Positions 3,356 through 28,919 of a DNA stretch of 32,690 nt are shown here, piece after piece. How positions within the stretch are numbered: the stretch's first letter is position 1; each line of letters starts with the position of its first letter. The DNA is taken from NCBI GenBank assembly GCA_001929475.1, contig LXFE01001385.1, positions 1 through 32,690 of the forward strand, in the 5' to 3' direction. The position numbers were made by a program, and so were the translations under genes. The notes below the pieces were generated by a model. That model saw nothing but the letters and a program-made list of their open reading frames with translations, was not told the DNA's origin and did no database searches. Origin of the DNA: Neolecta irregularis DAH-3. Lineage: Eukaryota.

Positions 3356-4706
3356 ATGATCCTAACCATGGGTGCTCTCTCGACCAACGCCAACCGTGGT
3401 CCTTTATTTCTTTACAACAGTCAAGTCGCACGTGGCAAGTTAAGATATGATAAAAATCAAGTCAGTACGGTTTTCAAATGGGATAATGTTGATTCAACAG
3501 GAATTCTGGAAATTCTACAAACTCTGTTCATAGAATTACAAATGTATAATCTCCCTCCGTTAATCGAACCATCGAGATCTCGCAGTCGGTCCTTTGTACT
3601 TAATTCCGATGATAAGCCATGTTAAATGATTAGTTGGACATATTTAGACGGAATCCAGTGGCTTCTCCTAAAGGCCTCTATTTACATGGTACAGTTGGAA
3701 CAGGAAAATCAATGCTCCTGAATCTCTTCCATGCTTCAATCCTAGGCTCATCACGTCTTCACTTTCACGAGTTTTTACGAAATTATCACCTTGAAACCCA
3801 CAAGTTAAAATCCCAGCATGGAATGGCTTTTAATGCAATACCACAGATAACGTATAACATCGCGGCCAAGTCTCGAATTTTATGCTTTGACGAATTTATG
3901 GTAGAAGACATTCAGTCTGCCATGATTCTACAGAGATTATTGGAAAGTTTGATTGATCGTGGAGTGGTGTTGGTTACCACGAGTAATCGACATCCTACGG
4001 ATCTATACAAGAACGGACTACAAAGAGATAATTTTATTCCCTGTATAAATCTACTTCTAGAAAGGCTTCGGATTGTGGACTTGAACGGACCCGATTATAG
4101 ATCAATGCGTGACTCCACAGTGACCACATCTCCGTATTACTTTCCTCTAGATGAAAACGCAGAGAAACACGCAGAAAAATGGTTTAAAAGGTACGCGGCC
4201 AATCAAGGACAACCGGAAAAGATCTTCATATGGAACAGAGCTATCACTGTTCCTCTAGCGTCTAGTAAAGTCGCGAAATTTACGTTTGCAGAGTTATGTG
4301 GATCGCCGCTAGCTGCTTCTGATTATTTCGAATTATGCCGCCATTACCAGATATTTGTGGTTACTTTGATACCCAAACTCTCTCTCGGACAGAAGGATTT
4401 GGCGAGACGGTTCATCACTTTTATCGACGCTCTATATGAATCTCATAGCAAACTGTTCGCTACTAGCGAGGTAGATTTGGAAGAAATCTTCGCCGGAGAG
4501 GCCACAACAGGACAAGATGCTGTCGAGTATGGAGAATTGGCGGATGATCATGGGGCAAGCATTTTGAAGACCAGTATATTTGTATGTCCTATCGTACAAT
4601 GCGATGACTAAATTTATAGACAGGCGAAGATGAAATTTTTGCATTCAAGAGGGCTAAAAGTAGGATTAGGGAGATGAAGCGAGATGATTGGAGACCGCTG
4701 GCTTAA
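3356..4706 (+). CDS. AFG1: AFG1/LACE1-family mitochondrial ATPase
   Basis: PKGLYLHGTVGTGKS (Walker A), RLHFHEF, LCFDEF (Walker B), TTSNRHPTDLYKNGLQR, ARRFITFIDALYE, and spliced C-terminus GEDEIFAFKRAKSRIREM. Introns 3465-3500, 3596-3633, 4582-4619. Confidence 0.92.
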
Positions 4707-7673: not shown

Positions 7674-8764
7674 GCATGTTCTAGTTATCTATAAGTATCT
7701 GGCTTAATCAGCAAGCCAGACCAAACTGGAGGATCCTTATAGCCATGTTCGACTGTATAAAGCTTTGCGCTTCACACGGAACGCAACATATCGCAAAGTT
7801 TTAGTACCCTCCATAGATCAATCCGCTCTCGCTTTTTAATAAAACAGCTCCCCGATAGAGAAATATAAAGAAACAAATACTGTTTGATTCTATACATGGA
7901 GTTTTCACCGCCAACCATATCTATAAAGTACCTTACGTTTTACGATACGAGCTCATCAAGTTCGCAATACCTTCACAATTTGATCAGACTACTTTGCGCT
8001 TGTGTTGAGCATCACGGGAATCTGTTGTTTAGCACTTTTCTCTATTTCCTTTTCCGGAACTGAGACACTGACGGCCAAAGATATTGCTGGCAGGATCATT
8101 CAAAGCAGTATTCCTTCCTCGAAGCTTTACCGACAAAACAAACTGATAATCGCATTGAATGACTGTTCTGGCTAAGCCAAGTCTGCTTATACAAAGGATA
8201 CGAAATAAATCCGACAAGTCGCTTCATACAGAAGCTATCGTACCTTTATTGCATTATTGAACTACAGTCCAAGAAAAGCATATCGCTGTTAGAATCGATG
8301 GGAGCAGGCGGTGTGGTTGAAAAGATGGATCGCAATGGACGGAAATGGCTTTCGCAGCCACTGCTCACCCATTCTGACAGGTCGACTCCACTTACCCATC
8401 CAAACCTGCGAGTTCTGGAGATGACAACAAATGTTGTACTACACTATAATTGGCGCATTCCGCTGTCCAGATTCTTCTTCCGGCTTACTTTCTTTCATCT
8501 GTTGCCTTTCGCCGATACTCGGCCGGATCCGGTCGTCAATACTCTCCTTTTCTTCCCGTATACCGTCTTTACAACAGATAGAGTGGAATATACCAAGGCT
8601 GGTCACTCGTTTATTTCCACCAGATCTACAACACTCTTTGGCTGAGCCTAAGCAATCAAGTTTTTCTCTCCCTGATATTACCGACTTTCATTATCAATCC
8701 CGTCACTATCTACCTTCCTTTCCCCAAGAATTTTCTGCTAGACAGCTTGTTATCTACTTGAGAG

Positions 8765-10081
8765 ATGTCTTCAATCATTGAACTTCAATTGCAAGATATA
8801 CACCCATCAATTCCCGACGGTCTCGATATTGAGGGTCTGTTTACGCAGTCAGGGAGCCTCCCGCTGTACTCTCCCGTGTTTGAGGGGTCTGCTATCACAG
8901 ATATTGAATGGTCCTCTGGGTGGGGCGACAACGATCTCGTCGATGCTTGTTCCGATGGTGCCGCCACACCAGCCTCGTTGTCCTGGCGGGAAGCCGCCTC
9001 ACCCACCGCAATGGTTGGATCATGCCGGAAGCAGAAGTCCAAGAAGCGACGAAATAGCCGCAAACAGCAATGGTCCGCCATGCCCCACAACGCCCTCTCC
9101 AGCCCCTATATGACTGAAGGTCGGTCGCTGCTGGACTCAGCGATTCCTCATTCGCCACCAGTTGCCCCTCTACTTTCATCGCTTCCGGAGTCGTTCACCT
9201 GTTTCCCGGATTCTCTTGGTGAAATTGATCAGAATAATCACAGTGTCCTCCCTGAATCACCACATTCGCCGGAAACGCTCGCAATTCTGCAAAGCTCTGC
9301 CTCGACACTGTTGCGAACGAAAGATTTAGACTCATCTAACCCCACTAATATGAATAACAAACATCTCAGCACAGTACGCCAACCCTATCCGGACACTGTT
9401 CATCCGCAGCACATATTCCTCGGAGAGACCTTCGCTGAAGACTCGTCCGCCATGCCTCGTTCGGAATCCGCTCCTGCGAGTACGATGCCTGAGCCCCCAT
9501 CCACACCCAAACGTCAAAAACCAAAACTCGTTGTACCAAAAGGTCCTTCCCGCAAGCGTTCATTTGATATCGAGGACGAGGATTACACTCCTACTAAGCG
9601 CAGTCGAGCCGAAGGGTTCCCCGTCTTCTCTATTCCCGACTACAATGATCTCCCATCCCCTTATGCTGCGCCTCTCACCACACACCTGAGTTCATACTCA
9701 GAGTATCCATTCGGTAGTCCAATTGATCCGTATATGAGTTACAACCAAGACGAGTACTACAGCAAGTATGCTCCTCTTTCCTCATATCACGCAATGCATA
9801 CACCACCCGCATCGCCTTTTTCTCAGATGGGATATTATCCTTCGATTCCAGAATATGCCCTCCCAACGATGGCATTTCCACCATCTCCGCCTCATAGCGC
9901 TTCCCGGAAATTAAGCATGCCGTTACCACCGAGAAAACGAAGTCGAAAATCTGGAAAAGCTGATGTCTTTATCAACTTCACACAGATGGACGGTCACGCT
10001 TTGTCTTCTGGTGTAGCACCAAGCGGAAGCTCCAAGTCAAGATCTTCGATTTCGCTCAAACGGATTCGATCAATTATTTAG
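8765..10081 (+). CDS. wetA: WetA-like developmental regulator (ESC1/WetA-type C-terminal domain)
   Basis: Intronless 438-aa Ser/Pro-rich ORF ending VFINFTQMDGHALSSGVAPSGSSKS, matching the conserved WetA motif FVNFTxxDxxxxxxGVAPSGSSK; basic NLS-like clusters. Confidence 0.78.
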   Translation: MSSIIELQLQDIHPSIPDGLDIEGLFTQSGSLPLYSPVFEGSAITDIEWSSGWGDNDLVDACSDGAATPASLSWREAASPTAMVGSCRKQKSKKRRNSRKQQWSAMPHNALSSPYMTEGRSLLDSAIPHSPPVAPLLSSLPESFTCFPDSLGEIDQNNHSVLPESPHSPETLAILQSSASTLLRTKDLDSSNPTNMNNKHLSTVRQPYPDTVHPQHIFLGETFAEDSSAMPRSESAPASTMPEPPSTPKRQKPKLVVPKGPSRKRSFDIEDEDYTPTKRSRAEGFPVFSIPDYNDLPSPYAAPLTTHLSSYSEYPFGSPIDPYMSYNQDEYYSKYAPLSSYHAMHTPPASPFSQMGYYPSIPEYALPTMAFPPSPPHSASRKLSMPLPPRKRSRKSGKADVFINFTQMDGHALSSGVAPSGSSKSRSSISLKRIRSII

Positions 10082-10333
10082 CCACTCCTTTAATTTCACT
10101 CTCTCTTTTCTACTCTGCTGTACAGCGTCACATTCACTAAGTTATTATTTCCTTATCTTTGTTATAATCTTGTGTTTTTCTAATCATTTGGGTCTGCCAA
10201 ATACCTTTGTATAGCTAGTTTCTAAATATTACTTGTCGTATAACAGATATCCTTCTCTTTTGAGTATTACCTTGAGTCACTCAAAAATGTCTTAAGACTT
10301 TCTTCCCCACCAACCATTATCGCCTCCGGCACT

Positions 10334-12270
10334 ATGTCTGATAGAGGCTCTAGCTCGCTTGCTGCTTTGTCTACCTGGGAACTGAGAGAAACTGTCGTTG
10401 ATTCCTTGGGTCCGCCAGCCAGCGATGCTAATATAGAACGTTACGATAGGGGAGATAAGAAGTGTTTCAACTGTGACTCTGAGCGTACGTGGCTTATCTG
10501 AAATTCTGTCAACCATTTAGAGCATATGTCGTGGAACTGTACCGAACCAATGAAACTGAAAGAAGGTCAAGCCTGTTTCAACTGTGGTAGCAATGGTGTG
10601 TTTTTCTTTGTGCGGCAGTTTTGAAGACCACAGAACATATGAAGCATGAATGTCCTGAACCAAAGAAAATTGGAAACTGCCGAAATTGCGGTATAGAAGG
10701 TGCACTTTGTCTTCTAGGTGTTCTTTGATTTCTGCAGGTCACTTGTCCAGAGAATGCCCTGAGCCTCGAAAGCCTCGTGAGGGCGAGATGTGCTTCAATT
10801 GCAATTCAACTGGCATGCACACCTATTCTAGATTCATCTCACTTGTCAGAGCATATTTCTAAAAACTGTCCCGTTCCAAAAAACGACGGAATTCCCATCC
10901 TTTCTGCAGAGGAGGCGTGGGCAGAACTTGTCAAAGCCGATGAAGCAAAGGATTCAGATGATGTTCAATTCGCGTTCGATATTTATAGCAAAGCTTGTCC
11001 GCAGGAATCTTTTCAGGAAATTGAAACGAAACTCCGCAATGCAAATATGAATACCAGACTCGTTTCCTTGAAGAAGGAGGAAATTCCTGCAAACAAGATC
11101 ATCTTGAACAATAAAAATGAAGAAGTTGAGTTCGTCCTTCAGTTTCAGATCGGTCCCAGAAATCGGCGAACTAAGTATTGTCCTTGAATCATATATTGTA
11201 TTCTTACTATTTGAAAGATCCACTGCCGGTGGGATTTCCAGCGACGCCGAAGAGAACTTTAAAAGGCTCTCGAAAACAGGAAGACTGGTTGATTGTCCAG
11301 TTCCTGTGTGTAACAATTGCAAGGAGAAAGTATCAGTTGCCAGTTTACACAATATACTGACAATTTAGGGACACTTAGGAAGAGTATGTCCCCTTCCAAA
11401 ACTTGGTATAAATTTGTTTAATCATGCTGTTCATATTTAGGAAGAACAGACCCACGTCCAACCGTTGCGTGTGTTAATTGCGGCGAACAAGGAATTTCTT
11501 ATCTAAATGTCATATACTTACCTTCAGGCCATCGAGCTCGAGATTGCGAGCTTCCTCTGCAGGATAATCTCGGCTCTTGTAGGTCTTGTCATAAATCAGG
11601 CCATAAATCCAAGGATTGTCCCACAATTTCGAGCGGCTCTATACCCGACGAGGGAAGGTATATATCTCGAGATTACCAACTGAATTCCAAAATTTCTGAG
11701 TATCCGAAACCACAGACTTATGACAGGTGCAACCTTGATGGCCATAAACAATGGGAACGTCCTCAAAAACATGAGATGAGGTGTCATAATTGCGACCAAG
11801 CTGGTCATAAAGCTTCAGACTGTACTAGACCTAGGAAAAAGAAATGTCGCGACTGCGGAGAAGAAGGTCATTACACCAAGGACTGCCCCAAGCATGCAGC
11901 TACTCCCACTGCCGGTTGGGGAAATGGTAATCTTAGAGCGTTTCAGGGCTATACACAGAGACATACTGTCAATGAGACTTGGGGCTCCAGGAATCCTTCC
12001 AACTATGACAATTGGGGTACAAAAGAAACACACACGTCTCCTGAGTGGGATTCAAACCCGCCCATGACTGCTACAACCCTTAACCATGGATGGGAACCGA
12101 GAGCGTCAAACACCAATAACTGGGGTTTAAGTTTTGGCAATCGTGCCGCCAAATCTCCCAGCGTTTCTGGAAAGGATAATACTTCCAGATGGGGTTCGAC
12201 TGCCAGTAACCAGCCAGGGGTTGCAGGTTGGAGAGCAGCTGCGTCGAAAGTCGAAAGTCGCTGGAACTGA
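10334..12270 (+). CDS. Multi-CCHC zinc knuckle nucleic-acid-binding protein (fungal CnjB-like family)
   Basis: About 9 CX2CX4HX4C knuckles after splicing, central EEAWAELVKAD...EENFKRL domain, Trp-Gly-rich tail. Introns 10485-10520, 10596-10633, 10700-10737, 10813-10849 (GC-AG), 11175-11217, 11330-11368, 11406-11440, and probably 11492-11527 (GA-AG). Confidence 0.85.
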
Positions 12271-13237
12271 AGACAAATTTGTGCTCTGCTCTTGATTGGA
12301 CTCACGAGCGGCTCTCCGATTTTTCTGGGCGATAAATATGCTTCATTTCTTTAGAGTATTAGTAGATAGCTTTACCAGTATTCTTGGCGACAATCTTCAC
12401 ATTGCACTTTCGAGATTTTTGAATGGCCGTTTAACATCGCCGGAGGGTCTACGACGGCCGCGGGCGGGCGGGTGTCCACTGGAAATCCGAAATCGTTGTG
12501 CCTAATTTGCTACTGCAAATCTTGAGAAACAAATTTAAATCGCCGAAAGACTTTATACAGAATTCTCTTGACATAGTAAATTTATTAGCGTTAGTGCTTT
12601 GCTTTCAGTCCATTTACCTAACATTATGCGAGTAACTTTGACTCCCCACCACGATCGGTCATTAAGATATCTGACTTAACGGAAAAGAATCACAAGATCT
12701 CTGTTAGTCTACTTTTAAAGTGTTGATTAGCATGGTACGGTCCTACATGTATTCCTTTTATTTTCTATGATTTACTTGGTTTGACGAGTTCTATATTCTA
12801 GAATCGAAGATCTCTCGTAGGGGCTGACCACAAAAACCATTGATCGTGATACCGTTTAAAGTACATGATAATTAAACTAGACCTAACTTGTGATCTCCCG
12901 ATGAAACGGATAGTGTACAAATATTTTCTTTTTATGGATCAATTAATTAATTCACGATCTAGCCAATGGAGTAATAATGGCGAACGTATTCCGTGCATTA
13001 AGATGGATCATTCGCTTGTCGGTCTTCGCTTCGTGGCTGTTACATAAGGTAAATTATTCAGAATATGCTGATCCACCTAGAGACTGCGTTCTAATGTAAC
13101 CGTTAATAAGGAATTCTTTTGAATAAACAATCGAAGCAACCTTGACATTTATCATAATAGACATTACGCACTAGGAAGTCACTATGCACGCGGCTCGCAG
13201 ACAAAGCTTTCGATGCGCCAAGTTCCACAAGACTGTC

Positions 13238-28909: not shown

Positions 28910-28919
28910 NNNNNNNNNN
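28910..28919. other. Assembly gap
   Basis: Run of 10 N flanked by an identical 66-bp sequence. Confidence 0.98.

Follow-up and report, generated by a model that had tools for sequence, protein, structure and literature searches.

How does a gene for a protein with conserved zinc knuckles accommodate 36 nt in the middle of one of them, when these nucleotides resemble an intron and yet begin with GA? The question is posed by a CCHC zinc-knuckle gene of Neolecta irregularis DAH-3, an ascomycete that diverged early, cannot be cultured and has very short introns. The gene lies on contig LXFE01001385.1, whose 32,690 nt were analyzed at full length and are referred to here as the window (an assembly gap of 10 N is found at 28910-28919). 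In its sixth knuckle the motif CVNCGEQG/HRARDC is split by a piece that starts with GA and ends with CAG, exactly as a sequence-only reading of the window had described. That reading considered three outcomes, namely splicing from a GA donor, a retention switch that toggles one knuckle, and an intron caught turning into exon. We find that the piece is very probably a true U2-type spliceosomal intron with GA-AG ends, which is cut from the main form of the transcript. The basis for this assignment is threefold: a transcript-like contig lacks the 36 nt, A occupies donor position +2 in the genomic sequence, and splicing yields the conserved motif.

Host gene and interrupted knuckle

The gene model, built from coordinates, opens with an ATG at 10334, closes with a TGA at 12270 and has no internal stops (Table 1). 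Removal of its eight introns, all 35-43 nt long, yields a protein with nine perfect CX2CX4HX4C knuckles, the spacing of the zf-CCHC family (PF00098), which Pfam detects in the last ORF (E = 2.9e-12). The protein is composed of knuckles, a middle domain that is common to ascomycete homologues, and a tail rich in Trp and Gly. By their terminal dinucleotides, the introns fall into six GT-AG, one GC-AG (10813-10849) and one GA-AG (11492-11527).

The introns of knuckles 1-4 and of knuckle 6 share one position: each is a phase-1 intron that splits the codon for residue 8 of the knuckle, immediately ahead of the His, so the common site claimed for the insert and the introns of knuckles 1-4 is confirmed to the codon. 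The intron of knuckle 5 (11330-11368) is in phase 0, one base earlier than the others. Cutting the corrected knuckle 3 intron (10700-10737, 38 nt) gives CRNCGIEGHLSREC, and 10813-10849 is the sole cut that restores knuckle 4 (CFNCNSTEHISKNC), which makes it a predicted second non-GT intron of the gene. The seven donors other than that of the insert match the CAG/GTAAGT consensus at 4-5 of 9 positions. The annotated protein of the AFG1 neighbour, mapped onto the window, also implies two introns of about 37-38 nt; the insert, at 36 nt, is therefore of local intron size, as had been proposed. Elsewhere in the window, the ORF at 3634-4611 (325 aa) shows 99% identity to NEOLI_001657, an NCBI protein from Neolecta irregularis DAH-3.

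Table 1. Coordinates of the CCHC zinc-knuckle gene, its introns and the elements of the knuckle 6 insert (window positions).
Feature	Position	Strand	Description
CCHC zinc-knuckle protein CDS	10334..12270	+	9 exons, 8 introns, 1635 nt spliced, 544 aa
Intron 1	10485..10520	+	36 nt, GT-AG, phase 1, knuckle 1; absent from X2 contig
Intron 2	10596..10633	+	38 nt, GT-AG, phase 1, knuckle 2; predicted from restored knuckle; kept in X2 contig
Intron 3	10700..10737	+	38 nt, GT-AG, phase 1, knuckle 3; predicted; kept in X2 contig
Intron 4	10813..10849	+	37 nt, GC-AG, phase 1, knuckle 4; predicted; kept in X2 contig
Intron 5	11175..11217	+	43 nt, GT-AG, phase 2; absent from X2 contig
Intron 6	11330..11368	+	39 nt, GT-AG, phase 0, knuckle 5; absent from X2 contig
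Intron 7	11406..11440	+	35 nt, GT-AG, phase 1; absent from X2 contig (11404 to 11440, cut +1)
Knuckle 6, 5' half	11470..11491	+	CVNCGEQ and first base of the Gly codon
Donor context AAG/GAATTT	11489..11497	+	5/9 match to CAG/GTAAGT (-2, -1, +1, +3, +6)
Probable GA-AG intron	11492..11527	+	36 nt, phase 1, GA..AG ends
CTAAA, second branch candidate	11503..11507	+	motif level
CTTAC branch-like motif	11517..11521	+	A 7 nt from 3' end, then pyrimidine-rich CCTTCAG acceptor; motif level
Knuckle 6, 3' half	11528..11547	+	last two Gly-codon bases and HRARDC

If the insert is retained, the frame stays open and free of stops, 12 residues (ISYLNVIYLPSG) are added, and the knuckle changes from CX2CX4HX4C to CX2CX16HX4C; on all these counts the letters bear out the earlier description. 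Knuckle 6 is intact, as CVNCGEQGHRARDC, only when 11492-11527 is taken out. In a run on earlier, different coordinates for intron 3, keeping the insert lowered the number of intact knuckles from 8 to 7. The resemblance of the insert to an intron goes beyond chance. Its composition is intron-like, not coding: its G+C content is 10/36 (0.28) as compared to 0.465 in the exons, a value reached by 16 of 1320 exonic 36-nt windows, its T content is 0.42 against 0.23 in the exons, and the stretch from -15 to -4 is 0.75 pyrimidine. The CTTAC reported as a branch-like site is indeed present, 7 nt from the end, and the sibling introns carry YTNAH motifs 7-11 nt from theirs, so that at the level of motifs the branch site and the pyrimidine-rich stretch are as in the neighbouring introns. 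The statement that no usable GT lies nearby also holds, with the closest upstream GT at 11473, 19 nt away, and the only one inside the insert at 11509; GC dinucleotides upstream of the GA occur at 11480 and 11483.

Protein searches, with the 282-aa last ORF as the query and targets of at least 155 aa, placed the gene product among multi-knuckle CCHC proteins. The library of representatives gave 989 matches at E up to 0.001, the best of them 37-45% identical, the search of near-length proteins gave 4 distant matches, and the search of longer proteins gave none among 815 candidates. The nearest homologues are P0001 (a hypothetical protein of Cirrosporium novae-zelandiae), P0002 and P0003 (Variospora fuerteventurae), at 30-35% identity. 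All three resemble the host protein in having N-terminal knuckles, a middle domain, C-terminal knuckles and a Trp/Gly-rich end, and in P0001 and P0003 the C-terminal knuckles include C.NC....HRARDC; these proteins differ from it in sequence (about 30-35% identity) and in that the host protein has one decayed knuckle (11719-11760). A protein near-identical to the CCHC gene product was not found in the protein collections (at least 155 aa), where the protein of the AFG1 neighbour was found, and the CCHC gene may lack an annotation or have been given a very different model.

Canonical knuckles were found in all 154 homologues, and the distance between C..C and H....C was 4 residues in 1138 of 1168 cases and 16 residues in none of the 1168. 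The middle domain is present in 32 of the 154 proteins; in 23 of these 32 it is followed by a C..C....HR.R[DN]C motif, which is uninterrupted in 23/23 such motifs. In each of three separate BLASTP alignments with P0001, a 12-residue gap coincides exactly with ISYLNVIYLPSG. The knuckle interrupted here is a conserved one, and splicing at 11492-11527 rebuilds it.

Two further features of the protein were observed. Between knuckles 7 and 8 the protein carries the decayed knuckle, YDRCNLDGHKQWER, to which an intact knuckle of P0001, CKHCGEMGHFVKDC, aligns in one of three local BLASTP alignments. The C-terminal 119 residues (11911-12267) contain 9 Trp, with 5 WG and 3 GW pairs, and Trp/Gly-rich ends are also seen in P0001 and P0003; GW/WG repeats are Argonaute-binding hooks in other proteins.

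Contig evidence at knuckle 6

The gene was found in two public runs, X1 and X2, neither of them listed as RNA, which belong to one study and come from different samples with different coded organism labels. X1 (word share 1.00) is a genomic re-assembly that may be the window's own source, and X2 (word share 0.85) has 20,248 records that total 11 Mb of contigs, its kind being guessed as 'DNA?'. Contigs were compared with the window over 10300-12300. In this interval the X1 contig contains the 36 nt and shows 0 differences at a word depth of 455. The sequence-only reading had reckoned with a T at 11493 that the assembly might have misread; the X1 contig has A there, an observation that is not independent, as X1 may be the source of the window.

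Record 2 of X2 (3810 nt) is identical to the gene over 1812 aligned bases, with 0 other letters and 0 gaps, and skips five intron-sized pieces. Four of these have GT..AG ends and correspond to introns 1, 5, 6 and 7 (36, 43, 39 and 35 nt, the last at 11405/6-11439/40). The fifth skip joins 11489 to 11526 and removes 36 nt, with three ambiguous bases, which leaves four equivalent cuts: 11490-11525 (AG..TC), 11491-11526 (GG..CA), 11492-11527 (GA..AG) and 11493-11528 (AA..GG). We infer that the GA..AG cut is the one used, as it alone has an AG acceptor and also keeps the phase of the sibling introns.

The X2 record is silent on the nature of its material. We infer that the contig derives from spliced RNA because it has five exact intron-sized skips, four of them GT..AG, with otherwise perfect identity, in a run of 11 Mb of contigs; were it DNA, its formation would still have required a spliced intermediate. 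It is unbroken from 10521 to 11174, and so keeps the predicted introns of knuckles 2-4. With these three introns kept, translation stops at codon 85. Since three predicted canonical introns are kept, the contig does not represent a fully processed mRNA. The introns concerned (10596-10633, 10700-10737 and 10813-10849) could be detained or regulated introns, or could come from unprocessed RNA picked by the assembler; possibly, they mark regulated intron detention in the message of the RNA-binding protein itself. At its other end, record 2 runs 1904 nt upstream of 10300 (its positions 1-1904) into the neighbouring gene (ORF 8762-10081); either the transcripts overlap or read through, or the assembler joined them.

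Which donor base the X2 source had is not visible in a contig that has lost the intron, and X1 and X2 carry different organism labels and stem from different samples. The individual that supplied the RNA could accordingly have a GT donor, the A at 11493 being an allele or an error of the sequenced genome. We regard this as quite improbable, because X2 is identical to the window over all 1812 bases, including three kept introns and untranslated sequence, so that the lone difference between the two would have to fall at +2; moreover, the A is read in X1 at the word depth given above.

Comparably improbable is that a sizeable share of the mRNA keeps the 36 nt, as a retention switch or an exonising intron, so that the 12 extra residues of a 556-aa product disable knuckle 6. 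The open frame of the insert would permit this, three other introns of the gene are kept in the X2 contig, and the word share of X2, 0.85, falls between the values expected without (0.828) and with (0.861) the retained form, between which it cannot discriminate. However, the one X2 contig listed for the gene is without the 36 nt, the insert has the composition of an intron, and no homologue has the 16-residue spacing that retention would create. The two proposals of the sequence-only reading that called for retention, the switch and the exonising intron, thus found no support, and complete retention in RNA, which it had said would refute GA splicing and speak for exonisation, is not what the X2 contig displays. 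As this is one contig from one study, and contigs drop rare variants and show presence rather than absence, the data support splicing from the GA donor as the main form and are compatible with a minor retained fraction.

The least probable of the alternatives, and one to which we give hardly any weight, is that the joint is an artefact of the 3-base repeat AGG, where the reverse transcriptase switched templates or the assembler joined the ends. The ends of the joint do share three bases, and Frey and Pucker include template switching among the possible origins of apparent GA-AG junctions (PMC7072748). Yet it is the joined form, and no minor variant, that the contig preserves, the joint coincides in phase and knuckle residue with four sibling introns and restores a conserved motif precisely, and the skipped piece has the length, the composition and a branch-like motif of an intron.

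Other classes of intron were considered and rejected. U12-type introns have the donor /RTATCCTT and the branch site TCCTTAAC; the donor here, GAATTTCT, is not of this form, and TCCTTAAC does not occur in the 36 nt. Introns of the HAC1/XBP1 type, processed by Ire1 and tRNA ligase, are cut in the loops of twin stem-loops with a CNGCNGN-like loop. The fold of 11462-11557 is unremarkable (z = 0.39, with 130 of 200 shuffles folding at least as well), which also speaks against any structured element, and the junctions lie outside matched hairpin loops and have no such loop motif. Use of a nearby GT or GC as the donor does not fit either, as the nearest upstream GT is at 11473 and the joint in the contig involves neither the GC at 11480 nor that at 11483. 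A screen of the whole window for introns joining open frames returned 92 + 78 ORF-pair junctions, which were mostly spurious and unusable for counting GA donors.

Proposed origin and relatives of the probable GA-AG intron

The position shared with the introns of knuckles 1-4 suggests that a knuckle was duplicated together with its intron, and such a duplication would have preceded the change at the donor. The GA intron may accordingly derive from an ancestor with a GT donor, located where its four phase-1 siblings sit in their knuckles, in which the T at +2 became A. The GA donor would be tolerated because all donors in this gene are weak beyond +3; pairing with U1 would be poor for every one of them, and losing the U at +2 would cost little. 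Recognition probably rests instead on the A at -2, the G at -1, the G at +1 and the A at +3, on a narrow range of lengths (35-43 nt), and on the CTTAC site and pyrimidine-rich acceptor near the 3' end.

Alignment of the six knuckle-plus-intron units revealed no clear paralogy of the introns beyond the sequence CTTATCT[G/A]AA in introns 1 and 8. This sequence is common to intron 1 (10493-10504) and the GA intron (11498-11508), at a similar distance from the donor. A search of the window against Rfam gave 0 matches, and no snRNA.

Introns with GA-AG ends are rare but already on record for fungi and animals, and this intron adds one case. In the splice-site table of a study of Ganoderma lingzhi, 35 GA-AG introns are counted, amounting to 0.038% of all introns (PMC11590231). 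For the 2604 introns of a study of Fusarium graminearum, GA-AG is grouped with the other non-canonical sites that make up 0.31%, sites recognized by inspecting RNA-seq data manually; Sanger sequencing verified seven genes with sites of this kind, and the passage does not specify whether the GA-AG one was included (PMC3577648). Both cases resemble the one described here: U2-type introns of fungal protein-coding genes, bounded by a GA donor and an AG acceptor and seen in RNA. The present intron differs from those of other fungi in belonging to Neolecta (Taphrinomycotina), in its length of 36 nt, in lying inside a knuckle at the site of paralogous introns, and in being in frame and free of stops. 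The words intron, splice, RNA-seq and transcriptome have 0 occurrences in the Neolecta genome paper (PMC5309816), and a GA-AG intron in Neolecta is not mentioned in the titles and the beginnings of abstracts of the literature on Neolecta introns and splice sites, nor in passages of PMC7940399.

Among animals, two species invite comparison, one of which, Oikopleura dioica, likewise has very short introns. According to passages of Frey and Pucker (2020), GA-AG introns are abundant in Oikopleura dioica and Eurytemora affinis, where they exceed GC-AG introns genome-wide, and a U1 variant has been proposed for Eurytemora affinis (PMC7072748). The same passages describe GA donors in these animals with an upstream AG and a downstream A, as in the AAG/GAA found here (PMC7072748). 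In those species the class is abundant across the genome, whereas here one case is known. A human GA 5' splice site, in FGFR, is described in the same source as being used efficiently by the major spliceosome, with a canonical site 6 nt upstream said to be needed (PMC7072748). Compared with that description, the Neolecta donor has no canonical site at 6 nt, the closest upstream GT being the one 19 nt away at 11473.

Two of the eight introns of this gene are non-GT, one GA and one GC, which hints at a broader property: a Neolecta spliceosome that works on introns of 35-45 nt with donors degenerate beyond +3 and is generally relaxed at donor position +2, with GA and GC donors many times above the roughly 0.04% of GA-AG introns in Ganoderma. 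We consider a genome-wide relaxation of this kind unlikely, if less so than the alternatives to splicing weighed above; should it hold, it would provide a fungal parallel to Oikopleura and Eurytemora.

For annotation, the intron carries a caution, as a gene finder limited to GT and GC donors would read through the 36 nt unwarned, since the frame stays open and free of stops, and break one knuckle. For the biology of splicing, it would represent a fungal case in which an A at +2 permits both catalytic steps with no canonical site near, unlike what has been claimed for FGFR. It leaves the general knowledge of splicing unchanged, and contributes one data point on the tolerance of A at +2.
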